A DNA stretch of 64,000 nt, from the NCBI GenBank assembly GCA_000092065.1, contig CP000583.1, one strand, 5' to 3'. A program made the position numbers and the translations under genes. Positions 14,322 to 64,000 of the stretch are shown here, piece by piece (the first letter of the stretch is position 1; every line of letters starts with the position of its first letter). The notes below the pieces were generated by a model. The model was given only the letters and a program-made list of their open reading frames with translations, did not search any database and was not told where the DNA came from. This DNA comes from Ostreococcus lucimarinus (lineage: Eukaryota).

Positions 14322-14471
14322 CGCGGTTTCTCTCGCCGCTCTCGCGTCGCGTCGTTCGCGTCGCTCGCTCGATCCGGCGTCGTCCGTCGTCCGTCGCGGC
14401 GTCGTCTGGCGGTCGCGCCGCCGCCGCGGCGTCGCGGTGGTTCGTCGCGCGCGCGTCGACCCTCGCGTCAC

Positions 14472-14509: not shown

Positions 14510-14725
14510 CCGCGCGTCGAGCGCGTCGATCGCGCGCGCGACAAAGAGACGCGCTGACTGTTTGCCCACACGCGAGTTCGACGCGCGCGCGAGGGGACCG
14601 ACGCGGCGGCCCGCACTCGACGTCGCGCGCGCGTCGCGGCGACGAGCGCGCGGCGGGAGGCGCGGGAGACGCGTCCGCGAGACGCGCGTCGACGCGGCGA
14701 TTCGATCGACGCGCGCGCGGGCGCG

Positions 14726-26165: not shown

Positions 26166-26208
26166 TTCACGCGCGACCGACCGCCCACCAGCCGCCATTC
26201 GAGACGAT

Positions 26209-33153: not shown

Positions 33154-34059
33154 ATGGGCGTGGTGTCGCGACATCGATCGACGCGCGCGCAGGCGGTGAA
33201 CGGGATGCGCGATAACGGCCTGCCGCGGAGCGACAGCGCGATGACGCTGCGGAACGCGCAGAAGGGGTCGGAGACGAGCGCGCGCGCGACGCGGGGCAAG
33301 TCGCCATCGCGCGCGGCCGGAGATCGCGGTGATCCGTGTGTGACGGACGCGAACCGGGTCGCGGCGACGGCGGCGACGCGCGGGGACGGGACGGAGACGC
33401 CGCTGGGGGGGGAGGACGAAGACGAGGACATGCTCGGGGAGGAGACGCCGTCCGCGAGGGAGCTGGTGCCGGATCGACGGTGGTACACGCTGGTGAAGAT
33501 TCACGACGACGGGTGCACGGTGGCGGTGTCGGACGCGGAGCTGGCGATGCTGGAGGCGAGCATTTTGAAGGAAAACGTGGGGGGAGGGGCGAACGCGTGG
33601 ACGCGACCGTCGTCGATGCGACCGTGCTCGAGCGAGGAAGATGGTTCGGGCGGACGATGGGCGCCGGACGACGCGGAGGAGTACGAGGAGTGCGGGGCGA
33701 GCGGACGCGGCGGGGACTCGATGTCGGCGTGGGAGGACTCGGAAGTCAGCAGACTGCCGAGCGCGGCGCCGGGCGTGGCTGGGCACACCAAACCGGGCGG
33801 TCCGTGTGATCACTGCGGTGCGTTGGACTCGCCGCAGTGGCGCCGAGGACCGGCGAGCAAGCCGATGCTGTGCAACGCGTGCGGCACCCGATACCGCAGA
33901 ACGAACAACCTGGGACCGTCGCCGTCGAGCCGCATGGCGACGCCGGAGAAACGCAAGGCGACTGCGGTACAACAAAACGACACCCCGCGTGGGAAAAAGA
34001 ACGCGCGCTGCGGTGCTATCGGTGAAAAATTTTCCCGAGCAAATGCGATGGTTTACTAA
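33154..34059 (+). CDS. GATA-type zinc finger transcription factor
   Basis: C-terminal CDHCGALDSPQWRRGPASKPMLCNACGTRYRR is a GATA finger. Start is uncertain: ATG 33154 or upstream ATG 32827 within the CpG tract. Confidence 0.6.
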   Translation: MGVVSRHRSTRAQAVNGMRDNGLPRSDSAMTLRNAQKGSETSARATRGKSPSRAAGDRGDPCVTDANRVAATAATRGDGTETPLGGEDEDEDMLGEETPSARELVPDRRWYTLVKIHDDGCTVAVSDAELAMLEASILKENVGGGANAWTRPSSMRPCSSEEDGSGGRWAPDDAEEYEECGASGRGGDSMSAWEDSEVSRLPSAAPGVAGHTKPGGPCDHCGALDSPQWRRGPASKPMLCNACGTRYRRTNNLGPSPSSRMATPEKRKATAVQQNDTPRGKKNARCGAIGEKFSRANAMVY

Positions 34060-48420: not shown

Positions 48421-48912
48421 CGCGCGATCCGCGCGCGCCGTCCTCTGTCGCCGCGCCGCCGCGCGCGCCACCGCGCGCCGCGCGCGCGCGCCCGTAACAA
48501 AACACACGGACCGCGAACCGCCGCGCCGTACACCCGCGCCCTCGCATCGTATGCGCAAACAGTCACGCGTCGACGCGTGTGCTCGACATAAATCGTTCCC
48601 CCGTCCGCATACGCATACGGACGCGCGCGAGCGGTATCATCGGCGTCGAAGGTTCGCGCCGTCGCGCGAAGGTTCGCGCGGCGTCGGCGCCGAACGCGCG
48701 ACGCGCGCGGGTCAACGCGCCGCACACGTCGACGACACCGCGCGTCGACGCGACCGCGAGGAAGCGTCGAAGCGCGAGGAAACGCGACTCGCGAGACGCG
48801 CGCGACCGGCGAGAGACGCGCGCGACGACGCACGGCGCGAGAATCGCGGGATCTGCGGCGCGATTGGCGATCGAATCGGATCGAATCTCGAGCGACGACG
48901 CACGGCGCGACG

Positions 48913-50154
48913 ATGGCGGGATGCGCGAAGATGACGGTGGCGGTGCTGAAGGAGGAACTGAAGAAGCGCGGATTGGACGCGACGGGGCTGAAGGCGGCGC
49001 TCGTGGCGCGATTGGAGGAAGCGATGGCGGGCGAGGACGACGGGGCGGCGGCTGAGGCGGCGGCGCCGGAGGAGGAAGAGGCGAAGGAAGAGCCGAAGGA
49101 AGAGGCTGGGGAGGAAGAGGACGTGCGAGCGAAGGCGGAGGAAATGGCGGAGAAGGCCATGGCGGAGCACGCGGCGAGCGAGAAGAAACGCGAGCGATCT
49201 CCCGAACAAGACGACGCGCCTCCGGAGGCGAAGAGCGCGAAGTCGGACGGCGAACACGCCGCGGCGCCGAGCTCGGCGCAGGGTGGCCTGACCAAGGATG
49301 GGCAAAATCTCGCCACGTATGAGATGCCGGACGGTCAAGTGCGCAAGGACGTGCCGACGCAAGGCAACGAAGGGCGCATCATCGGTCGCGGCGGCTCAAA
49401 GATTCGTGAATTACAAGACATGTTCCGAACGCGCATCACCATGAACCGACCGGCGGGTTTGGCTGAAGTTGTCGGTATGTTGGATCACGTGAACGATTGC
49501 TGCGACGAAATCACTCGTATTGTCGAGGACGGTAACGTCCGCGAAGCTGCCGAGCGCGCGGGTCAGCCCGTCCCGGGCGGCGCCTATAGCTCGTACGGTG
49601 GCGGCGGCTTCGGCGGCGGCGGCGGCGGCTTCGGCGGCGGCGGCTTCGGCGGTGGCGGCGGCGGCGGCGGCGGCGGTCCTTTCAGCGGCCATATGGAACG
49701 CGTCCCGTGCGAAGGTCAAGAGGGGCGCATCATCGGCCGCGGCGGGGAAAATATTCGTCGCGTCGAGTCCCAAACCGGCACTCGCATCAAGATGAACCGC
49801 GTCGACAACGTCGCCGAAGTGTACGGTACCCCGGCGCAGTGCACCGAAGCCGTGCGCATGATCCAAGAGTACATTCACACCGCGCCGAACCGCGGTGGTG
49901 GTGGCTTTGGCGGCGGCGGGTTTGGTCAACAAGGCGGCTACGGCGGCGGGTACCAGCAGCAAAGCTTCGGCCAGCAAGCCGGCTACGGCGGCGGATACCA
50001 GCAGCAAGCCGGCTACGGCCAACCGGCGTACGGCGCCCCGGCGGGCGGTGCGCCGCTCCCGCACGGCTGGGAGGAAGTCAACCCGGGTAACGGTGGGCCA
50101 GTGTATTATTGGGACACGGTTTCGAACACAACGACCTACACTCGCCCGACGTGA
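48913..50154 (+). CDS. RNA-binding protein with SAP, two KH domains, Gly-rich (GGF/GGY) region and C-terminal WW domain
   Basis: SAP domain (TVAVLKEELKKRGLDATGLKAALVARLEE). KH domains (EGRIIGRGGSKIRELQ; EGRIIGRGGENIRRVE). GGFGGGG tract. WW domain (LPHGWEEV...YYWDTVSNTTTYTRP). Confidence 0.7.
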   Translation: MAGCAKMTVAVLKEELKKRGLDATGLKAALVARLEEAMAGEDDGAAAEAAAPEEEEAKEEPKEEAGEEEDVRAKAEEMAEKAMAEHAASEKKRERSPEQDDAPPEAKSAKSDGEHAAAPSSAQGGLTKDGQNLATYEMPDGQVRKDVPTQGNEGRIIGRGGSKIRELQDMFRTRITMNRPAGLAEVVGMLDHVNDCCDEITRIVEDGNVREAAERAGQPVPGGAYSSYGGGGFGGGGGGFGGGGFGGGGGGGGGGPFSGHMERVPCEGQEGRIIGRGGENIRRVESQTGTRIKMNRVDNVAEVYGTPAQCTEAVRMIQEYIHTAPNRGGGGFGGGGFGQQGGYGGGYQQQSFGQQAGYGGGYQQQAGYGQPAYGAPAGGAPLPHGWEEVNPGNGGPVYYWDTVSNTTTYTRPT

Positions 50155-50313: not shown

Positions 50314-51495
50314 TCAATCACTCTCGAGCACGTTCTCAAACTCTCGCGGCATCACGGTGCCGTTTCGACCCTTAAATTTCCCTAAAACTCCTCGCTTGCC
50401 GCCCGCCACGCTCTCCAACATTTCGCCGCTTCCAGTCGCGTCGACCCAAAACGCGCCCTCCACGAGTTTGTGCGGACTCCACTCGAAACCCGCGCGCTCG
50501 CCCACGGATTTCGTCGCCGTGACAAACTCTTCACGAGTCGGTCTCGGCTCACCCGTTCCTCGCTTCGTCGCGCTGAGAACGACGTTCACCGGCGACTCCA
50601 TGACGGGAAAGCTACACACCGGTCCGATCCACCGCTCGAGTCGCCGAGCAAAGTCCCGCACCGCCTCTCGGGCCGGTGACCCTCGCACACCGTTAAACAT
50701 ATTCAACACTAAGCTACCATCCGATTTGAGCGCCTCGCCGCACGTCTGAAGAAACGCGTCTTCGCTGAGATGACTCGGAATCTCGCCCGCGCCGTCGAAC
50801 GCGTCGACGAAGACGATATCCAAACCATCGCGCCGACGCAAAACGCTCGCGCAATCCCCCAACACCACTCGCATCATCGACGTTCCTTCACGGCTTCCAC
50901 TCTCGCTCTCGCGCGCGTCCACGAACCCTACTTTCAAGTGCTCCCTCGCCACGTCCGCGACCAAAGGATCGATCTCGCACACCTCGACGTCGCACGCCGC
51001 GAATTTCTTCTTCGCGAACGCCGGCGCCGCCCCCGATCCCAAGCCGACGTAAAACAGCCTTCCATTCGCGGTCACTAAATCCAGTCCCTTGCGCGCGCAC
51101 AGCCCGATCGACGCCGCCGTCATCACGCGCAGGTATTCGTACGGCAGCGCGTCGGCGTCGGCGCCCGCGTCGCCGACGTACGTCAGCCCTTGTTCCACCT
51201 CGTTGAACCGCAGCGAGCGCCAGGGTCCGAACGCCGCGACGCGCACGTTCCCGTTCATCGCGCTCGCGCGCTCGAACACCGTGCGCTCGTCGCGCGGGTC
51301 CCATTCCAAGTACGCGCGCTCCGACCTCGCAAAGTCCCCGCTCCATCGATTCAGCGCGCGTTCGGCGCGATCGAGGTCGATCCATCGCGCGCGCGCGCGC
51401 GCGGACGCGCGACGACGTCCGCACGATGGATCTCGCGCGTCGACGACGCGAACGAACGCGCGGTGCGCGCGCGGAAGCGCCGAGAGCGCGCGCAT
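50314..51495 (-). CDS. Spermidine/spermine synthase-like (PABS fold) methyltransferase-family protein
   Basis: RLFYVGLGSGAAPAFAKKKFAACDVEVCEIDPLVADVAREHL and DIVFVDAFDGAG are typical of the PABS/class I MTase fold. ATG 51495. Confidence 0.45.
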   Translation of the reverse strand: MRALSALPRAHRAFVRVVDARDPSCGRRRASARARARWIDLDRAERALNRWSGDFARSERAYLEWDPRDERTVFERASAMNGNVRVAAFGPWRSLRFNEVEQGLTYVGDAGADADALPYEYLRVMTAASIGLCARKGLDLVTANGRLFYVGLGSGAAPAFAKKKFAACDVEVCEIDPLVADVAREHLKVGFVDARESESGSREGTSMMRVVLGDCASVLRRRDGLDIVFVDAFDGAGEIPSHLSEDAFLQTCGEALKSDGSLVLNMFNGVRGSPAREAVRDFARRLERWIGPVCSFPVMESPVNVVLSATKRGTGEPRPTREEFVTATKSVGERAGFEWSPHKLVEGAFWVDATGSGEMLESVAGGKRGVLGKFKGRNGTVMPREFENVLESD

Positions 51496-51660
51496 GGATG
51501 TGTCGAATTAACGGCATTAATGCGCGCGGCGTTCGCGCGACGCGCGGCGCTCCGCGTCGTCGCCGCGCGCGGTCGAGGGCGCGCGAATGAGGTCGGCGCG
51601 AAAATCACGGCGATCCCTCCTGACGAGCGCGAAAATCACGGCGGCGCGCGCGATCGACAG

Positions 51661-51914
51661 GCGTGGACGTGAGCATGAACACGCACCTGAAGCAGGTGAA
51701 GCTCACGCTCAAGGGTAAAAACCCGACGGCGGTCGAACACCTGAGCGTTCGAGGGAACACGATTCGGTATTACATCCTTCCGGACTCTTTGAATCTGGAC
51801 ACTTTGTTAGTAGACGACACGCCCAAGCAAGGGAAACCGCGCGCGAAGGCGGCGGCGAGCGCCGGTCGAGGGCGCGGTCGCGGTCGAGGGCGCGGGCGCG
51901 CGCGGCCGACGTAG
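51661..51914 (+). CDS. SMD1: Small nuclear ribonucleoprotein SmD1, 3' exon only (first exon not located)
   Basis: [53 protein letters not shown]...[12 protein letters not shown] matches the SmD1 Sm2 motif and RG tail. An upstream in-frame TGA sits inside a CCTGAC branch-like motif followed by ACAG, consistent with an intron ending at 51660. Confidence 0.75.
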
Positions 51915-52210
51915 TCGGTCCGCCGTCGGCGTCCGAGCGCGTAGTATATAAAAAATGTCAGCAAATAAAGCGACGACACGCGCAACTGCTCCTTTGCGCG
52001 CGTCACTTGTTAGACCCGTCCCTTACCGACGGGGTTGTTTGTAGGACGCACATTTGCTTTCAAGAATCGCACGCGAATTGGCTTCAATCTCCTTCGGCCT
52101 AGGACTTCGAGGCCTCGGACCCCATCAGGTAGAGATACGCTTAGCAGTGGAACGCTGAACGCATCAGGCGGTGAGACAGTTAATTCATTCTGAATTACTA
52201 AATTTCCGCG

Positions 52211-55200
52211 CTACAGTACGGACTCAAGAGACCGGTTGGGGGGCAGCAGATCAGCCATTTCGCTCTTCAAACGCTCGAGAGCGTCCGCGTACGAAATGTG
52301 CGCGTTCTCTGTCTTTTTGCTCAACAACCTCCGCCAGCGAGCAAACAATGCCTCCAACGTTCGGGCACTACGAACGTAAGGAAGCACGACTTCCCACACG
52401 TACCGCATATTTTCCGTGCCCAGCCAGGTTGTTCTGTCCACCTGGAACGCACCCGCGCCGCCGCCTTTTTCGGCGAGCGCGGCCAAGGCGAACGCGATGA
52501 CGGCGTCTTCGAGGTCCGACCACATAAGATCGCCGGACCGCGTCTCGCCGTGCTCGTCGATGAGTCGCTTCGCGTTCTCGAGGAGCGCCTTGGCCTGAGC
52601 GTCGAGCGTCGCTTTTTTGTCCCTCTCTTTGGGCTCGATGTCCTCGTACTTCGCCGTTTCGCTCTTCAAACGCTCGAGAGCGTCCGCGTACGAAATGGAA
52701 TTGTTCTCTGTCTTTTTGCTCAACACCTTCCGCCAGCGAGCACACAATGCCACCGGCATTCGGCCACTACGAACGTAAGGAAGCACGACTTCCCACACGT
52801 ACCGCATATTTTCCGTGCCCAGCCAGGTTGTTCTGTCCACCTGGAACGCACCCGCGCCGCCGCCTTTTTCGGCGAGCGCGGCCAAGGCGAACACGATGAC
52901 GGCGTCTTCGAGGTCCGACCACATAAGCTTGCCGGACCGCGTCTCGCCGTGCTCGTCGATGAGTCGCTTCGCGTTCTCGAGGAGCGCCTTGGCCTGAGCG
53001 TCGAGCGTCGCTTTTTTGTCCCTCTCTTTGGGCTCGATGTCCTCGTACTTCGCCGTTTCGCTCTTCAAACGCTCGAGAGCGTCCGCGTACGAAATGGAAT
53101 TGTTCTCTGTCTTTTTGCTCAACACCTTCCGCCAGCGAGCACACAATGCCTCCGACGTTCGGGCACTACGAACGTAAGGAAGCACGACTTCCCACACGTA
53201 CCGCATATTTTCCGTGCGCAGCGCGGTTGTTCTGTCCACCTGGAACGCACCCGCGCCGCCGCCTTTTTCGGCGAGCGCGGCCAAGGCGAACGCGATGGCG
53301 GCGTCTTCGAGGTCCGACCACATAAGATCGCCGGACCGCGTCTCGCCGTGCTCGTCGATGAGTCGCTTCGCGTTCTCGAGGAGCGCCTTGGCCTGAGCGT
53401 TTAGCGTCGCCTCCGTACTCGCCCCCACTTCAGGGCGGAGCACGTATTTTTCAGCAATGCTCGCGTACTTGGCGTCGTATGTGTCTCCGTTCGCCGCGGC
53501 GAGAAGAACGCCAAAAATCAGGCGACGCATGTTCAATTGTTTGCCCGCGCGTGCGTCGACATCGCTGTACGCAGCCGCGAAGTTCTCTTTCGAGAATTTT
53601 GCGACATCGACTTTTTTGTCCGTCGATTCCATGCGACTTCGCCAGAACGTTATGAACCATGTGATTGGGGCGGACAAGCCCCCTCGAAGCAACTCTCGTA
53701 ATTGTCGTGCATTGATTGCGTCACTCTCGCGGGCGGATGCGGTTTCCACGCGCGCTACCGAACGCGCTTCCTCGGGTGAAAGCGTACCCTCGGCGCTGTG
53801 AATCAAAACGAGTAGTGAACGCAGCGCCTGCGGATACCGAATCCAATGAGCGACGAGTCGTCCGCTCAAGGCGTCACCGTACTGTGATGTCTTCGTGTGC
53901 ATCTTCGTGATCCTATATAGCTCCATGTAGACCGCCTTACTTGGCAGAATTATTTCTGCGTCGCGAAACCAAATTTCCAGCGCCGCTTCGAGACGGTCGG
54001 GTTGGCTTCGGCAAGCTTCTCCCAGGAACGCCGTAAGGAATTCCTTGTTACCCAGCGAATCGATGAGAGCGCGCGCATGACCGCCGTTTGCGTCAAAACG
54101 GAGCAAGTCTCGAAATAACGAGAGGATTGCGCCGTCTTCAATGTCGCACGCCTTCTCGTCGCCGCCGAAGAAGCGCGCCGTGAGCGACCGCGAGGACGGC
54201 TGCGCGCCCGATCCATTTCCGTTCGAGACCGCCTCGGCGCCCGCCAAAAGATCGACAAAGGCACTCCAAAAGTTTTGCGTGAAGAAAACGAGCAGCCGAT
54301 TTACTAGGTCAGGCGAGACTGTCGAGTCGGCAAAGATCGTCTCGTGACGTGCGAGCACTATGCTGCTCATGGTGCGTACCGCAGTCGCGGCGCGGTCGGT
54401 GTCTTCTCCGTAACAGCGCAGCACCCACGGGTTTGTGGCGAAGCCGGCAGTGTCTGCCATGGAGACGACCGGCACCTTGCGGTGACCGGCGATGCGAATG
54501 CCCGGCGTCGCTCGGTTCAAGGCCCACGTCGAACCCAGCTCGATCCACGTTTTCAGAAAATAGGTCCAGACTATTTCAACAAACATTCCATCGAACGCGC
54601 CCAGAGCAGCGAGCGCGTGCATTCGTACGTATTTCGGCTTGTTCGACTTGTGCGTCGCGCGGTACTCGAGGACAAAGGCCACGAATGCGCTGAGCAGTCG
54701 TCCCATTCGACGTCTCGTCGGGTGAGTGATGGCGTGGAACCGGACGTTGGCGTCGACGATAGGTTCCCAGCACTTTGATGGATTGCCGCTCACCGTGAAG
54801 TCGACGTAACGGACGAGCGTGTTGTCTCTCGCTCGAATGTGCGCTTGCTGCGCGTTGTCGCCGTCACTAATGAGGTAGTTTCGATGCTCTCCCAAGCGTG
54901 TTGAAAACCAGCGCTCCGATTCGCCGACGTACGCGCCTTCATCGGACCGCACCAGCCACACGTACGCGTTGACCGGCTCAGCGTACAACCTCGCCTTCAG
55001 GTCGCCGCGCGAGTCGCGATGTTCTCGAGACTTCAACCAATTCGATAACGTTCGTAGGTGCTCCATGAGTTCTAGCGCCCCCGACTTGTCGTCACCCAGC
55101 GTCTCGCCGACGTCGTAAAATTGCTCCACAAAAAAAGCCGGGACGTGCGTCGTACTAAAGTACGTGTGGCGCCAGGTTGACGTGTCCGCTAGATGTCCCG

Positions 55201-56821
55201 CAACTGAGGCGTCTTGAGTATCTCTGCGCTGCGCGCCGATGATGTCGCCGCTGAGCGTTTGGATGGGTGTGTCGGCGCCGCTCACCCAGCCAGGCACGCG
55301 AGCGACTTCTCGTAGGAAGGATTTGATGCTTTCGTCGCTGGCATCCTTCGGGTCGAAGGCGTCCTTGAATCCAACGAGAGGGAAGCACTCGCAGCGGTCG
55401 AGAAAAGTTAACATGGCGTCCTTCGCCTTGGACATGTTGTCCCCATCGGCGAGCCACTGCTCGGCGTCGAGCACGAACTCCTCTAAAACGGGAGACAAGT
55501 TCGCCTCGAAGTGGACGTCAAGCACCCCGCGAATCTTTGCGTTTGCGTCGTACATAGCCTTCGCGCTCCCTGCGATCGCGGGACCTACGAATCGTCGCGC
55601 GCGCGATTCCAGCGAATCATCTGAAACCTCCACCGCCGGCGCCGGGGACGGCGTCGCCGGTTTATGGGTTTGGCGACAATGGTCTAGAATTTCGCGTCGC
55701 CAATCGGTCATCTTAATAGAGCCGAATTTGGCGCGCACGTGCGCGACCTCTGCCCCTTCCCCTTCCTTCTCCTCTTCCCCTTCTTCTTCCCCTTCCCCTT
55801 CGTCTTCGTGTTCGTCTTCGTCTTCGTGTGCATCTTCGTCTTTGTCTTCGACGAATCCGTCTGCGAGTGGGGCGAACAAGTTACCGCGCGACTTGGCGCG
55901 ACGACGCGGGCGACACGCCCGCCCCGTGTGCAACTCTCGTACCGTGCCACCCGGCGACTGCTCGTGCTGCGCATCACTCTCGGCGTAGGTCGGCGAGGCG
56001 TGAAATTGTGCGGCTCGCTTGCCTGTCGCCGCCAGGATCGGAGGACTCTGCGGTTCGTCGTCACCGACCGCGTGCGCTGATGCCATCATTCGACACAAGG
56101 CGACGTCCATCGCCGTTCTCTCAATGATTTGGTCCGCATCGGCGCGGCCGCGCAACATCGCTCCGAGCGTGCCCTGAACGTCGTTCCGAGCTCGTTGAAG
56201 CGTCTCTTCGTCGGGTTCGTCGGGTTCGTCGGGTTCGGCGGGCGCGGTGCGCGGTTCGATCGATTCGTAGTGCATCTGCGCACGCTCGCCACCGCTGAGA
56301 ACGAGCGTTACGTCGATCGTAGCCTCTTCCGGCTCGATGATGACGTCGGCGTCTCCGTCGGGCGTCGCAGACAAACTGTCCGATATTACGCGCACGCGCA
56401 TCTTGTGCACGTCGGCCAACGCCATGAGCGAGAATTCGTCGCCCCACTTGCCCCCGAGCTGACCCAGGCTTGCGCACTCGGCCAGAAACTCCTCGCGTAT
56501 CTCACCCTCACTGAGATCTTCACGTCCTGCACCGTTCGCTGTATCGAGAAAACCGATGCGCACCGGCACTATATCGTCGTCGTCGACGCGACGCTCCAAC
56601 CAGGCCGCGGCTTGGTGGCGTAAAAGTTCCACCGACACTTCGCGTTCGGGATCGGTTCGTCCTATGGCGGCGACAATCGCGTGGAACTGGCAGTCGCCCC
56701 CGCCCTCGGTGGTGACTCTCTGGACGCGCTCACGGATGAGGCGCCGCTCCAACCGACCTAGTCGCGCTTCGCCGTAGAGGCGCGGGTGACGTTTTCCCCA
56801 CTCCGCGAGAACGTCTGCCAT
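52211..56821 (-). CDS. Giant OTU-domain (deubiquitinase-like) protein with acidic tract and triplicated C-terminal 133-aa module
   Basis: OTU Cys box (GGGDCQFHAIVAAIG) and His box (QMHYESI) near the N-terminus. Poly-D/E tract. About 1000 aa of unassigned sequence. Three near-identical C-terminal repeats. First ATG 56821; the ORF extends to 56854 with a non-ATG. Confidence 0.65.
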   Translation of the reverse strand: MADVLAEWGKRHPRLYGEARLGRLERRLIRERVQRVTTEGGGDCQFHAIVAAIGRTDPEREVSVELLRHQAAAWLERRVDDDDIVPVRIGFLDTANGAGREDLSEGEIREEFLAECASLGQLGGKWGDEFSLMALADVHKMRVRVISDSLSATPDGDADVIIEPEEATIDVTLVLSGGERAQMHYESIEPRTAPAEPDEPDEPDEETLQRARNDVQGTLGAMLRGRADADQIIERTAMDVALCRMMASAHAVGDDEPQSPPILAATGKRAAQFHASPTYAESDAQHEQSPGGTVRELHTGRACRPRRRAKSRGNLFAPLADGFVEDKDEDAHEDEDEHEDEGEGEEEGEEEKEGEGAEVAHVRAKFGSIKMTDWRREILDHCRQTHKPATPSPAPAVEVSDDSLESRARRFVGPAIAGSAKAMYDANAKIRGVLDVHFEANLSPVLEEFVLDAEQWLADGDNMSKAKDAMLTFLDRCECFPLVGFKDAFDPKDASDESIKSFLREVARVPGWVSGADTPIQTLSGDIIGAQRRDTQDASVAGHLADTSTWRHTYFSTTHVPAFFVEQFYDVGETLGDDKSGALELMEHLRTLSNWLKSREHRDSRGDLKARLYAEPVNAYVWLVRSDEGAYVGESERWFSTRLGEHRNYLISDGDNAQQAHIRARDNTLVRYVDFTVSGNPSKCWEPIVDANVRFHAITHPTRRRMGRLLSAFVAFVLEYRATHKSNKPKYVRMHALAALGAFDGMFVEIVWTYFLKTWIELGSTWALNRATPGIRIAGHRKVPVVSMADTAGFATNPWVLRCYGEDTDRAATAVRTMSSIVLARHETIFADSTVSPDLVNRLLVFFTQNFWSAFVDLLAGAEAVSNGNGSGAQPSSRSLTARFFGGDEKACDIEDGAILSLFRDLLRFDANGGHARALIDSLGNKEFLTAFLGEACRSQPDRLEAALEIWFRDAEIILPSKAVYMELYRITKMHTKTSQYGDALSGRLVAHWIRYPQALRSLLVLIHSAEGTLSPEEARSVARVETASARESDAINARQLRELLRGGLSAPITWFITFWRSRMESTDKKVDVAKFSKENFAAAYSDVDARAGKQLNMRRLIFGVLLAAANGDTYDAKYASIAEKYVLRPEVGASTEATLNAQAKALLENAKRLIDEHGETRSGDLMWSDLEDAAIAFALAALAEKGGGAGAFQVDRTTALRTENMRYVWEVVLPYVRSARTSEALCARWRKVLSKKTENNSISYADALERLKSETAKYEDIEPKERDKKATLDAQAKALLENAKRLIDEHGETRSGKLMWSDLEDAVIVFALAALAEKGGGAGAFQVDRTTWLGTENMRYVWEVVLPYVRSGRMPVALCARWRKVLSKKTENNSISYADALERLKSETAKYEDIEPKERDKKATLDAQAKALLENAKRLIDEHGETRSGDLMWSDLEDAVIAFALAALAEKGGGAGAFQVDRTTWLGTENMRYVWEVVLPYVRSARTLEALFARWRRLLSKKTENAHISYADALERLKSEMADLLPPNRSLESVL
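52264..53440 (-). repeat. Three tandem copies of a 399-bp unit (about 99% identical) inside the OTU-protein CDS
   Basis: Antisense ORFs 52368..52745 and 52767..53144 are identical apart from 2 residues. A third copy follows from 53166. The protein module ATLDAQAKALLENAKRLIDEHGETRSG...ISYADALERLKSE occurs three times. Confidence 0.9.
55752..55860 (-). repeat. GAA/GAG-rich simple repeat encoding a poly-Glu/Asp tract in the OTU protein
   Basis: cccttccccttccttctcctcttcc... on the plus strand, translated on the minus strand as EDEDEHEDEGEGEEEGEEEKEGEG. Confidence 0.8.
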
Positions 56822-56854
56822 GCCTCCCCGCCTCGTCTCCGCCTCGTCTGTCAC

Positions 56855-58600
56855 GCTTCCCCGTTCCGTCGGATGCGAAAACTTTCAAGAATGTGTTTTG
56901 ATATCACCCTTCTTTCCAGGGTAGAAACGCGCGTCAGTCGCGTCGTCGTCGTCGCCGCCTCGCGCGAACCTCGCGCGAACGTGTCCCTTCGCCTCCGAGG
57001 ACGCAATCGCTCGTGCGCGCGCGCGTTCGTCGCCGCGCGCGTTCGCCGCGGACGCGGCGGAGAGAACGCACGACGTTTTTCGTGACACGCGCTCGACACG
57101 CGCGCACCGCTCGCGCGCTTCCGACGCGCGCGTGGGCGGTTTCGAGCGCGCGGCGCGATCGTCCCTCGTTTCTCCGTAACGCATCGACGCTCGAGATGCG
57201 CGAACGAGACGCACGACGACGTACCGCTACCGCTACCGCTGCCGCAACCGCTATCGCGTACGCGCGCTCGCTGCGTGCTCGCTTCTTGCAATCGCGAGAA
57301 AGTGCGGCCACGAACGAGCGCCGGGTTCCTTCTGGATGAAAACGCCGATTCGTTGACCCGCCCGCCTCCCTTTTTCTGTTTTTTGCTTTTCGCCGCGATG
57401 TTTTCGCGCTTGAGAACCCGAAGCCGAGGACCGCGCCGAATCGACGCTCGCACGGGCGCCGACGCGCGTCGATCGGCGCGGCGCGATCGCGCAATCGCGC
57501 GAACGCGCGTCGACGCGCGTTCGTCGACCCCGCGATCGCGCGAACGGACGCGCGCGCGCGCGAACGCGCGCCATTCCCGACGCTCGCGCGTCGTTAACAA
57601 CGTCGCGTTCTTCGCACGCGCGCGTGGATTCGCGCGACGTGCGACGTCGGGCGCGCGCGAGCGCGCGCGACACGCGTCGATGACGGCATCGCGCGCGCGC
57701 CGACGCGCGCTGGACGCGCGGCGCGCGGAACGCGCGCCGTCGTCGCGAGTAATGTCGCGAATCGCCGCGCGCGGCGACGCGCGCGCGGCGTCGCACACGC
57801 GGGTGTGCGCGCCGTCGCACAAAGCGCTCGGCGACGCATTATACGAGCGGCGCGTCGGCGCGACGCCGCGTCGCGCGCGGTCGCGGACGAGCGCGTGCGA
57901 GCGGGGCGTTCGGAAGCGTGACGGGTGCGGACGCGTCGCGCGCGTCGTTCGCGCGGATGCGCGCGCGCGCGACGCGACGACGCGCGCGCGAATGTACGAC
58001 GATCGATTCGCGACGCTCGCGCGACGCGCTGGGCGTCGCGCGAGCGCCGCGCGGACGCGCGCTCGAGCGCGATGCGCGCGGCGATCGCGAAGACGAAACC
58101 TCGCTCGATCGCGCGCGCGCCTCGAACGCGCGCGCGCGTTCGGCGCCGAACGCGCAGCGCGCTGTGTCGCGCGCGCGCGGACGCTCGACGTGCAGATCGC
58201 CGCGCGCGCGATAAGGGTAAGTTCGTCGCGCGCGCGTCGGACGACGCGCGCGCGGCGATTTTCCGTGCGCGCGACGCGCGTTTCGCGCGTAGCGGCGCGC
58301 GCGGCGCGCGCTTCGACCGCGAAGCGCTCGATGCGCGCGCGCGCTCGAGCGAGGTTGCGTCTTCGCGACGCGCGCGACGATGCCTCGCGCGCGTCGCGCG
58401 CCGTCGCGCGCCGAACCGGCGCGCGACGCGAGCGCGAACGGCGTCCCGCCGACGCGCACTGCGCTGTTTGCGCCCACCGTGGAGACCGGCGACCGCTTCC
58501 GCGTCGACGCGAGCGTGCGAACGCACACCGCTGAAGGCGGGCGAGCGTGGACCCCGTACTCGCCGGGGCGCGACGACGCGCCGTGCGTGGTCGGGTTCGG
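56855..58600. repeat. About 1.7-kb CpG-dense, T-poor low-complexity tract (degenerate CGCGCGA/GACGCG repeats) between divergent genes
   Basis: The tract is nearly devoid of stop-forming triplets, so both strands give long Arg/Ala ORFs. There is no protein-like composition. Confidence 0.7.
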
Positions 58601-59939
58601 CGTCGTTCAAGCGGACTCTCGCATCGCATCCGAATACGACGAAGAATTGCGCAAAGCGCGCAAGTTGCGGCGAAAGCTCGGCCTAGAGCTCGTGATGGAT
58701 GTGCGCTACGCCCGAAATCGCGGGACGGTGCAGACGACCATGTCCGTGGAGACGTTCATCGATGGCGCGGGCGCCGCCGGGACGATCTTCGGGACTCGAA
58801 GTCAAAGATTCAGATTCGTCGAAAACGCGATTCGACGGCGATACCCGCGGCGCGCGCGCGCGCAAGACGACGACGACGGCCCTCCGTGCGACGCGGACGC
58901 CGCCGTCGCGTGGCTGCTCCGACAACCGCACGATTCGCGAGACAGTATCCTCGTCGAATTCGATCGCGATACCGTGCGCAAGCCTTCGTTTCCGTATCGC
59001 GTGGTGTACGAGAGCGAGTCCGGCGACGAAGGCGCGTTCGGATGCGCGCTCACGGAAGCTGAGTTCGCCGACTGGTTAGGCGGTTGGCGTCCGCCGCCGG
59101 CCGCGAATCTCGACGAATTCTTCGCGATCCTGCGGACGATGAACGTCGATTTGAGCGGCATCGATACCGTCAGGACGCGGTGGCTATGTTTTGAAATTGG
59201 CAGTGGATGGGCGAACGTGTCCCTGGCTTTAGCGGAAACGCTCGGCGACGACGTATTGTGCATCGCGATGGACCCGAAGGAAGGGCTGGAATCGACACGC
59301 GCGAAGAACCACCCGCGCGTGCTCATTCTTAACGAAGACGTGTGGGATGCCCAATTCTTCATGGACGTCAGAAGAGCCACCGCTGGGCGCGTGCTTCACG
59401 CGCACGCGTCGCCGCTGTGTAAGTATTACTCCACGGAGCAGCGCCCGAGGCGAAAAAATCTACGCGACCGCGGATTGCAGCACGTGATTGATGAAGAGCT
59501 GCTGCACGCAGACTCCATGGTGACTGTGGAAGTCGACACGTTACGACTGCTAAATCCGCTTAGCATCAGCGTGGAGAACCCGCACAACGACGCGGATGGC
59601 ATCGGCTCGCGATGCGATCTCTTGTCCGACGTGTACGCAATGCTCGACTTCCTCGTGAGGTGGAGCGTGAGCTACTGCCACTTCACAAAGGGCGAGATAC
59701 GGAAGCACACCGACCTGTACGTCACCCGCAATCTGTACGACGTCATGAAAGAGGCGAAATGGAAGGGCCTGTGCACGTCGAGGTCGCCGTGCGCGTACCG
59801 TCGCCGATCGGGGGCGAGGCAGCACAAGTCTGGCGTTCAAAACCAAAAGGGATCGGCGAAAAAAGGGAGAATCCCTTTAGCGCTCGCTCGCGACCTCGCC
59901 AAGCACGTCGGCGTTCTCAAGACGGGCGTCGCGCGTTGA
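58380..59939 (+). CDS. Divergent DNA (cytosine-5) methyltransferase-like protein (DNMT6-like?), tentative
   Basis: Motif I-like LCFEIGSGWANVSLA. Catalytic PC-like HASPLCKYYS. Motif VI-like ISVENPHND. The 5' part of the ORF lies in the CpG tract, so the true start may be downstream (for example near MDVRYARNRG). Confidence 0.4.
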   Translation: MPRARRAPSRAEPARDASANGVPPTRTALFAPTVETGDRFRVDASVRTHTAEGGRAWTPYSPGRDDAPCVVGFGVVQADSRIASEYDEELRKARKLRRKLGLELVMDVRYARNRGTVQTTMSVETFIDGAGAAGTIFGTRSQRFRFVENAIRRRYPRRARAQDDDDGPPCDADAAVAWLLRQPHDSRDSILVEFDRDTVRKPSFPYRVVYESESGDEGAFGCALTEAEFADWLGGWRPPPAANLDEFFAILRTMNVDLSGIDTVRTRWLCFEIGSGWANVSLALAETLGDDVLCIAMDPKEGLESTRAKNHPRVLILNEDVWDAQFFMDVRRATAGRVLHAHASPLCKYYSTEQRPRRKNLRDRGLQHVIDEELLHADSMVTVEVDTLRLLNPLSISVENPHNDADGIGSRCDLLSDVYAMLDFLVRWSVSYCHFTKGEIRKHTDLYVTRNLYDVMKEAKWKGLCTSRSPCAYRRRSGARQHKSGVQNQKGSAKKGRIPLALARDLAKHVGVLKTGVAR

Positions 59940-60157
59940 GTTTCTACCCGTCAACCCGTGTACGTCGCAAAGCGACCGTTCGAATCCAGCGAGCCTCTCC
60001 GTAAGGTATAGCACACGCATGTTCACCCAGAGACACCCAGTGGCAAAATGGAATTGTTGAAGAGAATGTCAATGGATTGCGAGAGAATGCTACAAGAGTG
60101 CCGCGGCGTTGGCGCAACCCGAGAAGAGGAATCGTCGTCGAGCGTGGTGGTGATGTG

Positions 60158-60265
60158 CTTAAATAAGATATCAATCGCGCTCGAAAGCTTAAATAAGATA
60201 TCAATCGCGCTCGAAAGCTTAAATAAGATATCAATCGCGCTCGAAAGCTTAAATAAGACATCGTG
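60158..60265 (+). repeat. 30-bp tandem repeat cttaaataagatatcaatcgcgctcgaaag, 3.6 copies
   Basis: Perfect copies at 60158, 60188 and 60218, plus a partial fourth copy. The repeat sits inside an AT-richer island. In the 60048..60269 ORF frame it encodes (LNKISIALES)n. Confidence 0.9.
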
Positions 60266-60907
60266 GTAGATACATCAGTGCTACTAAATACATATACCCG
60301 AGTGTCCGATAAACAGGACGCGCGCGCGGAGGAGATGCGACGGATGGTGGAGATTGAGGCGTCGGCGTCGGCGTCGGCGTCGCGGCGCGTGTCTCGCGAC
60401 GACGCGAAGGATTCGTATCCGGTAGTGGTCGTCGCGAGGGAGAGACCGCGCGATACACGACGAGTGGAGGAGCTAGAAACTGAACTTAAAAAGTTACAGG
60501 CGAAGAGCGAGCGGCAGACGAAGAAGATCAACGCGCTCAAGGAGGAGCTCGCGACGGAACGAAGGGCGCGCTCCAACGAGTTGCAGACGGTGCGCGCAAA
60601 ACACGAGCGCGAAATGCGCGATCTGGTCGCGTCGGTGAGCGGGGTGCAGAAATCAAATGTTCAACGGCGACGTCGGGTGAGTTCGAACGAGTATCCGCCG
60701 CCGCCTTCGAGGATAGTATCGGGCGCGGACGAGTTTGATGCGTTCATCGCATCGTTTCACGCTTTACCTTCGTCTCGCCTTCGCCCTCGCCTTCGCGTCT
60801 CGCCCTCGCCCTCGCGCGTCCGATCGGACAATCGGACCGTCGGATCGACGTCGATCCGTCCGAGATTTCCGAGACGCCCCGAGACGGCGATCGAGGATTC
60901 ATCGTGA
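60263..60907 (+). CDS. Possible coiled-coil protein (N-terminal ~130 aa plausible; remainder may be non-coding or another frame)
   Basis: EELETELKKLQAKSERQTKKINALKEELATERRARSNELQTVRAKHEREMRDL looks like coiled-coil. The start is non-ATG. It may be spliced to the upstream 60048..60269 ORF. Confidence 0.25.
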   Translation: MVDTSVLLNTYTRVSDKQDARAEEMRRMVEIEASASASASRRVSRDDAKDSYPVVVVARERPRDTRRVEELETELKKLQAKSERQTKKINALKEELATERRARSNELQTVRAKHEREMRDLVASVSGVQKSNVQRRRRVSSNEYPPPPSRIVSGADEFDAFIASFHALPSSRLRPRLRVSPSPSRVRSDNRTVGSTSIRPRFPRRPETAIEDSS

Positions 60908-60967
60908 TCGTCATCTCGCGACGCCGCGCGATCGCGATCGCGACGCGCGCCGCGCCCGGACGCCGAC

Positions 60968-61967
60968 GATGAAACCGTCCGACGGCGTCGACGTCGCGCG
61001 CCGCGCGTCGTCGACGTCGCCGCCGCGCACGCCCGAGCGCGACGCGACGATCGCGCGGCGACCGCGGCGCGACGATGCGACGGTGCCGACGACGACGACG
61101 ACGGACGCGACGGCGCGAGCGCGCGCGGACGCGAGCGAGTGGTTGGAATTCGACGGCGCGCGCGACGACGGGCCGCTGGAGGGGTTTCCGTACGAACTCG
61201 GGGCGCTGGACTCGGGGCGCGGACGAATCGCGTCACGCGCGTCGACGCGCGCGATGGCGCTCGAGGGCGCGTCGGGGACGAGCGACGGCGCGGTGAAGTC
61301 GAACGCCGGTGATTTCGCGACCGACGACGGCGCGACGGAATGGGACGCGATGTGGTCGCGCGGCATCGAGCGCGGGCAGGCGTTCGATTGCAGTCGAACC
61401 GAACCCGCGTTTGAGCGGTTTTTGAGCGCGCGCGCGGCGACGGGACGGGGCGCGAGCGCGCTCGTGCCGGGCTGCGGGCGCGGGTACGCGCTCGCGTCGC
61501 TCGCGCGCGCGGGATACGAGGTTTGCGTTGGTCTGGAGATCTCGAACACGGCGCGCGCGAGCGCGTTGGAACACCTGAAGACGGAGGACGTGCCGTCGAC
61601 GGCGGTGGTGGAGGTGATGGTGGAGGATTTCTTCGCGTTCGCGCCCGAGGAAAAATTTGATTTGTGCTACGACTGCACGTTTTTGTGCGCCATCGATCCG
61701 CGGCGACGCGAGGAATGGGCGCGCGTGTACGCCAATTGCGTGAAACCTGGCGGTATTTTGGTGTCCGTGGTGTTTCCGTGTGGGGATTTCGAGGGTGGTC
61801 CGCCGTACGCTTTGACGCCGGAAATCGTGCGCGACTTGCTCGCGCCCGTCGGTTTCGAAGAAGTGTCGCTGGAAGAAACGCCCGCGGAGCTCTACGCGCG
61901 AGGACGCTTGGAATATTTACACGTTTTTAAGCGAAGTGCGTTAAGCGAAGTGCGTAGCGTAGCGTAG
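60968..61967 (+). CDS. Thiopurine/halide (HOL-like) S-adenosylmethionine-dependent methyltransferase, TPMT family
   Basis: LVPGCGRGYALASLARAGYEVCVGLEIS...FDLCYDCTFLCAIDPRRREEWARVYANCVKPGGILVSVVFP...GGPPYALTPEIV is collinear with plant HOL/TPMT. Long Asp/Thr/Ala-rich N-terminal extension from ATG 60968. Confidence 0.75.
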
Positions 61968-62080
61968 TCGCTGAACCTAGGCTCTGTAAAAGTAATTGAC
62001 CCTGAAGCCGATGCCGACGCGTCGCCGAGACGAGAACGAGACCACGAGAAAACCTCGTTACTTCACGACGCTTCTTCAGC

Positions 62081-63059
62081 ATGTTCTCATCGCGCGCTCT
62101 ACGCATCATCGGATTACTTCTTTTCGCCATCGCCGTCGCGCCCGTCGACGCCGTGGTTTACTACGGTGCGTTTCGTCTCGACCGTCGCGCCGCGCGAGAT
62201 ACTAACAGACAGTTTTCTTCGGGTGCCCACAGGTGGCTACACGTACGGCGAAGACGGCTTTCAAACGTACGGCGGGGCCGCCGTCGTGCGTCCCGGCATT
62301 CGTCCACGTCGTTACCGCTACGGACGCAAGCTTTTACAACAAGACAAGAAGTGCAAGACGATGCTCGACGTCGTCGAAAGCCTCCCGCAACTGAGCTCGC
62401 TCAAAGAAGCCATCAAAGATTTACCGAAAATCCGCGACGCCCTGAACAACTCGACTGCCCAGGACACGTTTTTCGCACCATCGAACGAGGCCATCGCATC
62501 GTTGACGCTATGGGGCGGGTTCGATGATTTCAAACGCGGGCTCGAGGGCATGTTTTCGTCCGACGAGATCAAAGCTCTGGTCGTCGCGTATCACGCGATT
62601 CCGGATCAAAAGTTGAATTGGGGTCAACTTCGCGCCAAGGCGGCAAAGGGTGAGTTCTTACCCACCGCTCTTTCGAAGATTTTCCCTGATTCCAGCGCCG
62701 CGCTGGAGGTGAGCTGGTGGAAAGGGGACATCTTTCTCAAGGGCGTCGGCTCCGAGGCTAAAATCTCCGCCGCCGACATCCCCGCGTGCGGATCCATCGT
62801 GCACGTGATCGACGGCGTCTTGCTCCCTCTCGATGGCGACGGTGAACTCTCTGACGAACAAAAAGCCCGCATCGAAGCCGCGCGAATAGCTTTGGGCGGC
62901 AAAGATGAAGAACCGGGCGACGCGCCCGCGCCCGCGCCCGACGCAGCGCCCGCGCCCGCGCCCGCGGAAGTCTTTCCAGACGACATCGAAGAGCTCGACG
63001 TGGACTACCCCATGGAAGACCAGTACGGTGAGGCACCCGCGCCCGCACCCGCGCCCTAG
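62081..63059 (+). CDS. Fasciclin (FAS1) domain protein with signal peptide and Pro/Ala-rich C-terminus (FLA-like), 2 exons
   Basis: Exon 1 is 62081..62165 (MFSSRALRIIGLLLFAIAVAPVDAVVYY). Intron is 62166..62232 (GTGCGT...ACTAAC...CACAG). Exon 2 is 62233..63059 (GGYTYGEDG...DTFFAPSNEAIASL...GSIVHVIDGVLLP...APAPAPDAAPAPAP). Confidence 0.75.
62166..62232 (+). other. FLA-like gene intron (67 nt)
   Basis: GTGCGT...GATACTAACAG...CCCACAG. The phase-1 junction joins the signal peptide to the FAS1 domain. Confidence 0.8.
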
Positions 63060-63067
63060 GGACCGAC

Positions 63068-63098
63068 TCAAGACTCAAGACTCAAGACTCAAGACTCG
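63068..63098. repeat. (CAAGACT)n heptamer microsatellite in the 3' region of the FLA-like gene
   Basis: caagactcaagactcaagactcaagactcgagacg. Confidence 0.85.
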
Positions 63099-63198
63099 AG
63101 ACGATTTTACGACGACTTTTACCGCGAGCGCGCGACGACGCCGCTCTCTGAATGACACAAACTCTACCGTTTACCCAATCACAAACTAAAAGACTACG

Positions 63199-63314
63199 TC
63201 ACGGCGAACCCGGCGGCGGCGGCGGCACGTCCACGGCGCCCATCGGCGCGAATCCGATCCCCGACGGCGGCGGCGGCACGTCCACGGCGCCCATCGGCGC
63301 GAATCCGATCCCCG

Positions 63315-63348
<34 letters not shown>

Positions 63349-63966
63349 TCGCCCCGCGCCCCACTCCGTCGGCGGCTCCCCCGGCGGCGGCGGCGGCGGC
63401 GCTTCCTCCTCCTCCGTCTCCCCCCTCCCTCCCGGCGGTTTCGGCGGCACGTCTTCCACCGTCCACGGCTCCACCGCGAACTCGATCTCGTCCCCGCCCC
63501 TCGCGCCCTCCGGCGCCGTCACCGTCACCACCGGCCCGTTTGGAAAAATCTGCGCCCGCGTCTCCCCCCCCGCCCACGCCGTCGGCAGCCGCACCCGCGC
63601 GAACCGCCGTCCATCGTGTTTTTCAAGATCCAAATCGCACGGATCTCCCATCGGCGCCGCCGGGATCCCCGTGATCGTCGCCCGTCCCGCGCGCGCCGCG
63701 CGCGTCCCGCTCGCCGTCCCGCGCGCGCTCCCCCGCGCGCTCGTCAGCCGCAGCGCCGTCGCGCGCAGCGCCGGCGCGCCTCGCGCGCGTCCCGTCGTCG
63801 CCGTCGCCGTCGCCGTCGTCGTCTCGCGCGCGCGCGTCCCATCGCGCGCGTCCTCGTCGCGCGTCTTCGTCGTCGCGCGCGCCGTCTTCGTCGATCGCCG
63901 CGCTGACGCGTCGCGCGTCAGCGCGTCGAAGTACGCCTCGCGCTTCCGTCGCAGGTCGTCCGACAT
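63199..63966 (-). CDS. Proline-rich hypothetical protein with duplicated SGIGFAPMGAVDVPPPP motif
   Basis: ATG 63966. A non-repetitive N-terminal region is followed by polyproline and a 51-bp direct duplication. Confidence 0.3.
63211..63316. repeat. 51-bp direct tandem duplication within the Pro-rich CDS
   Basis: cggcggcggcggcacgtccacggcgcccatcggcgcgaatccgatccccga occurs twice back to back. Confidence 0.85.
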
Positions 63967-64000
63967 CGCGCGCGCGCTCGGCGACGGCGCGCGCGTCGCG

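Follow-up and report, generated by a model that had tools for sequence, protein, structure and literature searches.

TET/JBP genes accompany KDZ transposons in fungi, and some Helitron proteins contain OTU domains; the mobile restriction-modification modules and free-standing homing-endonuclease genes of bacteria are units comparable to the one described here. DNMT-bearing retrotransposons have been reported from dinoflagellates and charophytes (PMC5890265), the Starships of fungi are cargo-carrying genomic islands with presence/absence polymorphism (PMC9156397), and in the Mamiellales DNMT5-dependent CG methylation marks nucleosome linkers (PMC5082852). This work concerns a locus in a 64,000-nucleotide stretch of the Ostreococcus lucimarinus genome (contig CP000583.1; hereafter the window, meaning the whole stretch analysed), in which a giant gene for an OTU-domain protein is transcribed divergently from a gene for a protein resembling C5 cytosine methyltransferases, with CpG-dense DNA between them. 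The best-supported reading is that this gene pair forms the core of an accessory island that is mobile, or has at least been repeatedly translocated. The locus is probably not fixed in the chromosome as a module, and lies instead at the heart of a separate 9.6-kb Ostreococcus island, which varies between strains and is apparently mobile. No published description was found of the locus, of its two proteins (A4RU04 and A4RU05), or of any OTU/methyltransferase island in the Mamiellales.

The window lies on a 982,987-bp chromosome of O. lucimarinus CCE9901, and the products of three of its open reading frames (ORFs), including that of a neighbouring KH/WW gene, match NCBI proteins exactly. It was compared with contigs drawn mostly from metagenomes and public assemblies, which carry L numbers below, while relative proteins carry P numbers. 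The features that delimit the island and make up its core are the following.

51577-51583: left of the two 7-bp direct repeats (GGGCGCG), defined from the junction sequences
51584-61214: strain-specific island of 9,631 bp, between a gene for a 393-amino-acid protein (50314-51495, minus strand) and a TPMT gene (first ATG at 61254)
52211-56821, minus strand: giant gene, 1536 amino acids, exact match to A4RU04 / XP_001416876.1, open frame to 56854
58380-59939, plus strand: gene for a 519-amino-acid protein, exact match to A4RU05 / XP_001416586.1, comprising an N-terminal domain and a predicted C-terminal minimal C5 domain
61215-61221: right copy of GGGCGCG, likewise defined from the junction sequences

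Firstly, the island is missing from this site in many close relatives. Ten long contigs (L026-L035, from JGI, Tara and other ENA assemblies, three of them scaffolds of 957-966 kb), all retrieved through a near-identical copy of the flanking 393-amino-acid protein, follow the window at 98.8-99.6% identity from about 40.3 to 51.6 kb and then pass straight to 61215-64000. Position 51583 is joined directly to 61215 in all ten, none of which contains island sequence, and the empty junction is identical throughout (...GGTCGA-GGGCGCG-AACGAATCG...). In every one, the 393-amino-acid gene and the TPMT gene stand head to head, about 130 bp apart, which is a typical spacing in this compact genome. The sequence GGGCGCG, embedded in an imperfect repeat of about 25 bp, is present twice at the filled site and once at the empty site.

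Secondly, the island recurs as a unit in the same material. L044 (9,649 bp) reproduces window positions 51583-61220 at 99.66% identity and comes from the same assembly as the empty-site scaffold L033, and L045, which begins at window position 51587, shares its assembly with the empty-site scaffold L031. Island contigs from two empty-site assemblies therefore start at the left island boundary, and one of them (L044) also ends at the right boundary. The filled left junction was recovered in two read-derived contigs (L024 and L025), and L004 covers 53486-60186 at 100% identity.

Thirdly, the island is found elsewhere. In one contig (L010), its right end, ...CTCGAAAGAAGTGGAAAC, adjoins a gene for an 883-amino-acid protein, an RSM22-like gene and an Obg-like ATPase gene, the island part terminating ...CTCGAAAG-AAGTGGAAAC. 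The ATPase is identical to XP_001419688, which sits on the 670,853-bp chromosome of CCE9901, and in six contigs (L038-L043) this second site is unbroken, with a nucleotide-sugar transporter gene on one side and the 883-amino-acid gene on the other; L038 aligns to L010 at 99.6% identity. L007 and L009, from two samples, have the same island end as L010 but another right flank, and in L022 a truncated island copy, again with this end, lies beside a P450 gene. There is insertion polymorphism, and the island occupies no fewer than two independent sites on the chromosomes, both of which are also seen empty; a sequence that turns up at different genomic positions, with empty sites to match, is what characterises a generic mobile element, and the island is single-copy per genome as far as is visible.

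A reading of the window made from the sequence alone (the sequence-only reading) had raised the idea of a recent insertion and called it speculative; the precise empty site in ten near-identical contigs, the contigs that stop at the island boundaries and the site on a second chromosome now give it substance. Its alternative, a lineage-specific chromatin or ubiquitin module, is not supported if taken as fixed among the housekeeping genes, as the locus is absent here from most strains. It had set the locus at 52211-59939, a span that holds both genes but is too narrow, as the discrete unit extends from 51584 to 61214.

The arms of the island, and the repeats within them, differ between copies.

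51584-52210: left island arm, beyond the 3' end of the giant gene and with no assigned ORF, found in L044, L045 and L023 but not at empty-site loci
60157-60262: 30-bp tandem repeat, 3.5 copies in the window
60335-60750, plus strand: 5' part of a coiled-coil ORF, intact in L006, from which the window strain diverges at 60750
60751-61214: CpG-rich right arm, found only in one island type (the window and L044)

The 30-bp repeat has two copies in L007, L009, L010 and L022, in which the island ends directly after it, with AAGTGGAAAC. L006 follows the window colinearly as far as 60750, from where it runs on through ...DRLRKTLEHKRFLA to the stop of an intact coiled-coil gene, beyond which lies an MFS permease gene; hence the ORF at 60335-60750 of the window is a truncated passenger copy. 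In L007-L010 and L045, an unrelated segment of 870 bp, containing tandem repeats of 44 bp (units at L007:1-140, at L008:1-180 and in L045), takes the place of window positions 56867-57440. The first four of these contigs had suggested that the methyltransferase-like gene moves alone, as a 2.8-kb cassette (57441-60217). That reading was dropped because L045, which retains the OTU/methyltransferase pair despite its swapped spacer, shows such contigs to be alternative-spacer islands with the OTU gene attached. Both the 30-bp repeats (3.5 versus 2 copies) and the 44-bp repeats mark the points at which variants diverge, as well as frequent breaks in metagenome contigs. The copy in L022 has a 759-bp deletion (window 56103-56861; L022:3340-3360) that takes the start codon and the whole OTU domain (residues 1-240) of the giant gene. 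The rest of that gene is kept, with a single C-terminal module left, as is the methyltransferase-like gene, and the ratio of non-synonymous to synonymous polymorphism (pN/pS) of the truncated giant gene, about 0.87, looks relaxed. Three tandem TTTAGGG units (a plant-type telomere repeat, or a telo-box) lie at L022:6430-6470, after the equivalent of window position 53020 and exactly where the truncated giant gene meets the P450 upstream region.

The pairing of the two genes is also conserved across lineages, judging from their sequences. In L001, from a distant lineage, an OTU-like gene (50% identity) is divergent from the gene for p570, a methyltransferase-like paralog, and a second methyltransferase-like gene lies downstream of the OTU-like gene; L003 comes from an O. 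mediterraneus-like organism. Beyond this, the neighbourhoods in L001 and L003 bear no relation to that of the window. Many strains, and three lineages, carry both ORFs intact, and no orthologs were found in O. tauri, Micromonas or Bathycoccus. The locus had been described as lineage-specific, and its relatives were indeed found only in Ostreococcus-like contigs: rather than ordinary orthologs in conserved synteny across related algae, the genes are present in a few Ostreococcus lineages, in differing contexts.

Several details of these contigs can be set beside this. The methyltransferase-like genes that flank the OTU-like gene of L001 (5875-7587, minus strand, and 14051-15532, plus strand) are diverged paralogs, with 24-31% identity. 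Between L001:12956-15542 and L013-L018, similarity starts and stops sharply around the methyltransferase-like gene and about 1 kb upstream of it, with unrelated flanks. Comparison of L003:1-2825 with L011, L012, L019 and L020 gives similarly sharp boundaries around the methyltransferase-like gene and about 1 kb upstream, and in L019 and L020 the copy is truncated at about residue 250. Both lineages have a gene of the inositol-phosphatase family 4-10 kb or less from the OTU/methyltransferase genes (L001:3543-4694; L003:12366-12697), and the window has one at 21848-22804, about 30 kb from the pair; this may be coincidental, or may be left over from an ancestral neighbourhood.

The island genes have host-like codon usage and third-position GC content (GC3). 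Neither gene has relatives in the 2.9 million viral contigs of IMG/VR, PHROGs yielded nothing, and on these grounds, together with the codon usage, a viral origin was rejected. Host-like composition and the lack of viral relatives suggest that the genes have long resided in Ostreococcus and were not recently acquired from a virus.

The giant protein has four parts.

56252-56704, minus strand: OTU-like cysteine protease domain (PF02338), residues about 40-190, with Cys44 and His184
55751-55858, minus strand: poly-acidic linker, residues about 322-357, from translation and alignment
53411-55750, minus strand: conserved orphan region of 780 amino acids, residues 358-1137
52214-53410, minus strand: three tandem 133-amino-acid C-terminal modules (399-bp units)

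The sequence-only reading served well for this protein: the ORF of 1536 codons from the first ATG at 56821 is the annotated one, and both the OTU boxes and the acidic tract that it reported are present. The OTU assignment is borderline but consistent: PF02338 scores 23.1 bits against residues 1-230, just below the cut-off of 23.3 (E 1.1e-4), and the 50%-identical ortholog (P0003, in L001) also matches it at E<=1. The Cys box (GGGDC44QF, within GGGDCQFHAI) and the His box (H184-Y-E-S) have the right order and spacing, and in an alignment of the OTU domains of orthologs with 53% identity neither D43-C44 nor H184 varies. The domain has no sequence match in the PDB, and the giant protein has no UBA, UBX or zinc-finger partners.

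Beyond the OTU domain, searches of Pfam, NCBIfam, PHROGs and PDB profiles were all empty, in keeping with the roughly 1000 residues that had been left without a family. An exhaustive HMMER search of 1.84 billion representative proteins with residues 358-1137 returned four matches, all from its own family (P0003 and three fragments). No nuclease family was found anywhere in the protein with Pfam or other family libraries. The arrangement Y620-x10-YVG-x8-R-x3-H646, with later E749 and N769, resembles GIY-YIG nucleases at the level of motifs only and is conserved in the ortholog. As a domain assignment for residues of about 618-770 it was rejected: Pfam gave no match at E<=10, hhalign against a small GIY-YIG alignment gave 0.7%, and an AlphaFold2 (AF2) model of residues 581-802, built from just 3-4 sequences, offered no support, with a mean predicted local distance difference test score (pLDDT) of 30.3. 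The C-terminal triplication holds, Tandem Repeats Finder (TRF) reporting 2.9 copies of 399 bp with 96% matches at 52254-53410. The module varies between one, two and three copies among O. lucimarinus-like strains (1403- versus 1536-amino-acid variants), and the distant ortholog has two. It matches nothing in Pfam or the PDB, and hhalign aligned it weakly over the full 52-column Myb repeat, represented by hand-typed reference sequences, at E 7.8e-4 with a probability of 10%.

The domain of interest in the divergent gene is its C-terminal half.

59181-59924, plus strand: predicted C5-methyltransferase-type domain, residues about 268-515

The available comparisons support this C-terminal stretch of about 250 residues as a divergent, minimal member of the C5-methyltransferase superfamily that retains the catalytic Cys and Glu. 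Its motifs are I (FEIGSGW), IV (ASPLC347), VI (ENP399-401), VIII (SYCHF..RKHTD) and X (RIPLALAR), including the SPLC and ENP already noticed in the sequence. Orthologs, at 63%, 47% and 46-48% identity, are few, and all are in Ostreococcus-like metagenome contigs; the 519-amino-acid protein has no Pfam, NCBIfam or PHROG family, and a profile of five homologs found nothing in the PDB. p570 (570 amino acids) is a full-length paralog at 24% identity (E 4e-11), with motifs nearer the canonical ones (ELCSGSTE, WASPPCTAYT, IIENPH, YRKTTDFF and RIPPALLRHI). A profile of the C-terminal domains of the methyltransferase-like proteins including p570 (A6) reached three proteins of about 210 amino acids (P0256-P0258), which score 29-32 bits against the PF00145 cut-off of 22, and one of which has its gene on a siphophage-like contig that also encodes TerL, RusA, YqaJ and a tail protein. 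The hhalign comparison of A6 with an alignment of the phage proteins (A7) gave a probability of 98.9%, E 2.6e-17, over 200 columns, nearly the whole length of the shorter proteins, which bridges the island protein to PF00145-positive relatives.

The conserved positions are consistent with this placement. ExxSG, ASPxCxxY, ENPH, SYC..K.TD, two cysteines and RIPxxL are invariant across both paralog groups. The catalytic Cys (C347) is always present, preceded by Leu or Ser in window-type proteins and by Pro (PPC) in p570 and the phage relatives, and the ENPH of motif VI is invariant in all family members, with ENP likewise in the PF00145-positive phage proteins. In motif I, ExGSG aligns to FSGxGG, and orthologs have sub-threshold Pfam methyltransferase matches. 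There is almost no target-recognition domain: the region where it should lie has about 30-50 residues with two conserved cysteines, and about 55 residues lie between the motif VIII-like and X-like segments, where M.HhaI has about 140. The top Foldseek matches of the AF2 model are class-I S-adenosylmethionine (SAM)-dependent methyltransferases, none at E<=1e-3. We infer that the 519-amino-acid protein methylates DNA cytosines. The phage family of about 210 amino acids (L036:9001-9645 and P0256-P0258) is itself unusual in matching only motifs I-VI of PF00145 and in having a compressed, Cys-rich C-terminal half; its members may be the smallest C5-methyltransferase-like proteins, and no published description of such "mini" forms was found.

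Between the two genes, the spacer falls into two parts.

56822-57440: part nearest the giant gene, of which 56867-57440 is replaced in other strains
57441-58379: non-coding CpG region next to the methyltransferase-like gene, 31 CpG per 100 bp, travelling with that gene

From 56855 to 58379, the spacer has 27 CpG per 100 bp, a GC content of 0.72 and a CpG observed/expected ratio of 2.09; across the whole window this ratio is 1.69, and that of GpC is 1.21. The sequence-only reading had taken a 1.7-kb tract here to be unusually long for the genome. That cannot be upheld, as similar tracts recur throughout the window and the intergenic part is only about 1.5 kb. With a loose threshold, three tracts in the window are longer (3.6, 3.4 and 2.5 kb), and with strict thresholds the spacer core of 1.0-1.1 kb is the longest by a factor of just 1.0-1.4 over the next, with about ten others in the same class. 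CpG-dense tracts with a GC content of 0.70-0.80 occur every few kb (for example 1139-4718, 23470-26917 and 31493-33973), and all six frames are open in them, generating spurious Arg/Ala-rich ORFs.

What sets the spacer apart is a conserved block. Window positions 57463-58162 align with L003 170-871 at 298 bits, against a tract-to-tract background of <=85 bits; the alignment is colinear, with 68.7% identity and three single-nucleotide gaps, which is close to the identity of the coding sequence (70.4%) and above that at third codon positions (61.4%). A protein-coding block was rejected, as the mismatches have no three-base periodicity, the gaps are of single nucleotides and L003 has stops in all six frames. 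Hence, with neither codon periodicity nor an open frame in L003, the block is conserved non-coding DNA. Rfam found no structured RNA above noise in the spacer. The 0.9 kb next to the methyltransferase-like gene most likely holds its promoter or 5' leader.

Outside the island, strain variation has other forms. The Gly-rich KH/WW/SAP gene (48913-50154) encodes 388-431 amino acids among near-identical strains, and alignments break at 48586-48764 and 49619-49654 (region 48532-49654), presumably through expansion of low-complexity repeats. The CpG-rich stretch at 63226-63320 has small indels or breaks in the empty-site contigs L027, L030 and L032.

A working model of the island can be proposed from its parts. 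The giant gene would supply an OTU-type protease, an acidic linker, the 780-residue region and one to three modules, with a deubiquitinase-like or DNA-targeting function, or both, needed by the pair. The second gene would supply a phage-type minimal C5-methyltransferase domain fused to an N-terminal domain of about 260 residues, and methylate DNA cytosines. The island might itself encode the function that moves it, or a circular or linear copy might recombine at short stretches of homology. A circular copy would carry the junction ...GGACTCGGGGCGCGCGAATGAGG..., with excision and integration at the GGGCGCG core. Three origins would fit the 7-bp repeat: duplication of the target site, a circular copy recombining at a short core sequence, and deletion mediated by microhomology.

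Several observations count against a mobile island of this kind, or against the functions assigned to it. Firstly, both junctions are known for one insertion only; where DNA is so rich in CpG, a repeat of 7 bp could be microhomology arising by chance, and a deletion between two such repeats would give an identical pattern. Secondly, the right end is not uniform, lying at 61214 in the CCE9901/L044 type and just after 60217 in the L010/L007/L022 type. The island ends share no terminal inverted repeats beyond CpG low-complexity noise, and no transposase, integrase, Rep/helicase, reverse transcriptase or capsid gene was found by Pfam, NCBIfam or PHROGs; the lack of viral or transposase hallmarks, noted from the start, persisted through these libraries, IMG/VR and the inverted-repeat tests. 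Thirdly, the alternative contexts come from metagenome contigs, L010 being a single one, and chimeric joins at tandem repeats are possible, just as contigs ending at the island boundaries could reflect branching of the assembly graph in a mixed population. Fourthly, differences between strains number 0-9 per gene, too few for pN/pS; the truncated L022 copy alone has enough. Lastly, for the methyltransferase, neither the 519-amino-acid protein nor its orthologs match PF00145 even at E<=10, motif IV reads P-L-C rather than the canonical P-C, and the AF2 model, like that of the giant protein built from just 3-4 sequences, is poor, with an overall pLDDT of 44.5, although its beta-alpha Rossmann core reaches 70-83.

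Mobility could have its source in the island itself. Tentatively, and with a low probability in our judgement, it may be an autonomous eukaryotic mobile element of a new class, in which the 780-residue region and the modules would provide DNA-binding and strand-transfer machinery, and the phage-derived C5-methyltransferase would mark either the CpG-dense leader of the element or the DNA of the host, serving protection, addiction or an escape from silencing.

Alternatively, the locus may be ancestral, most strains having lost 9.6 kb by recombination between the GGGCGCG-containing repeats, with the other contexts being rearrangements or assembly errors. Two repeat copies at the filled site and one at the empty site are exactly the pattern of a microhomology deletion, and host-like codon usage, the lack of any mobility gene and orthologs of both genes in other Ostreococcus lineages would all be expected. 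However, this account leaves unexplained an island right end at a second precise site on another chromosome, for which there are six empty-site contigs, and a third flank replicated in two samples (L007 and L009). Distant lineages carry the genes in unrelated neighbourhoods, and the close head-to-head spacing of the flanking genes in the empty allele is what this compact genome ordinarily shows. We therefore regard ancestral presence followed by loss as rather unlikely.

The gene pair also invites comparison with a selfish restriction-modification-like or toxin-antidote module, in which the giant protein would have a nuclease or other toxic activity, and the paired C5-methyltransferase would shield the DNA of island-bearing cells. 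The island would be stabilised and spread in this way, with a possible antiviral side effect against prasinoviruses. The divergent layout is conserved even where the methyltransferase-like partner is the 24%-identical paralog, the methyltransferase domain is of phage type, and the island is polymorphic for presence and absence; the GIY-YIG-like motif, conserved in the ortholog, was a lead only. Yet that resemblance failed in Pfam, hhalign and AF2, no nuclease family was recognised in the giant protein, and the L022 variant, which keeps the methyltransferase gene without the OTU domain, is neutral as to toxicity. Such a module is a distinctly unlikely explanation.

A fixed module confined to this lineage, acting in chromatin regulation or on ubiquitin and having the CpG tract for its special target, would accord with ORFs intact in many strains and three lineages, with OTU and C5-methyltransferase domains that would suit a chromatin role, and with the conservation of part of the tract. 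It is improbable, as the locus is missing here from ten of ten long near-identical contigs, similar CpG tracts all over the window leave no special target, and O. tauri, Micromonas and Bathycoccus yielded no orthologs: the fixity is contradicted, while a chromatin function of the encoded proteins is possible. Finally, misassembly of the CCE9901 reference or of metagenome contigs, for which a region rich in 399-, 44- and 30-bp repeats and low-complexity CpG DNA, where many contigs break, gives some opening, is very improbable indeed given the filled left junction in independent read-based contigs (L024, L025), the exact match of L004 over most of the island, an empty junction identical in ten contigs from different projects and assemblers, and the reproduction of the whole island by L044.

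If the locus is a mobile or repeatedly translocated island, its setting matters. Ostreococcus belongs to the smallest free-living eukaryotes; few eukaryotic genomes are as compact, or as poor in transposons, and the hypervariability known from them is centred on two outlier chromosomes. A 9.6-kb island moving between ordinary chromosomes of near-identical strains would mean that mobile cargo creates variation in gene content in the core genome too. To our knowledge, DNMT5 is the only CG methyltransferase proposed so far for the Mamiellales. The predicted cytosine methyltransferase of the island is unrelated to it, and strains with and without the island may differ in their methylomes, which, if true, could bear on virus resistance or gene silencing. 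The 780 conserved orphan residues make a clear candidate for a new fold, whether enzymatic or DNA-handling, and the phage mini C5-methyltransferases of about 210 amino acids are of interest as minimal enzymes. Should the tentative reading as an autonomous element prove right, the island would be the counterpart, in a nucleus, of mobile restriction-modification or integrative elements.

Set against known systems, each part of the island is partly familiar. With the CpG-rich DNA of Mamiellales it shares an observed/expected ratio of 2.1 in the tract, beside the window's own high value, and a tract placed between divergent genes; that composition is genome-wide, whereas the 0.7-kb block conserved between species and travelling with the methyltransferase gene is specific to the locus. 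The giant protein resembles OTU deubiquitinases (PF02338) in its Cys and His boxes and its borderline Pfam score, but differs from them in that the OTU domain is about 10% of 1536 residues, the remainder is without relatives and one variant (L022) lacks the domain. The 519-amino-acid protein resembles the PF00145 C5-methyltransferases (M.HhaI, Dcm and the phage mini subgroup of about 210 residues) in its colinear motifs I (xxGSG), IV (ASPxC), VI (ENP), VIII-like (YC..K.TD) and X-like (RIPxxL), and in the Rossmann-type beta-alpha core predicted by its structural model. It differs in the P-L-C of motif IV (P-S-C in another lineage), the lack of a direct Pfam match, the short recognition region, the N-terminal fusion of about 260 residues, and its nuclear location with host-like codon usage.

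As a whole, the island is like other elements with DNA-modification genes in carrying a C5-methyltransferase on a variably present segment at different sites, with an OTU-type protease aboard. Unlike them, it has no detected reverse transcriptase, integrase, DDE transposase, tyrosine recombinase or Rep/helicase, and no long terminal repeats or terminal inverted repeats; its methyltransferase belongs to the phage mini type and is no relative of DNMT1, DNMT3 or DNMT5. Mobile restriction-modification modules similarly pair a methyltransferase divergently with a large partner gene, though in the island the setting is a eukaryotic nucleus and no nuclease family was recognised in the giant protein. 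There is also a likeness to cargo islands: although the Ostreococcus island is much smaller than a Starship and lacks a "captain" recombinase, it likewise has defined ends, an insertion point in a short intergenic region between conserved genes, a short direct repeat at the junctions and a common empty allele.

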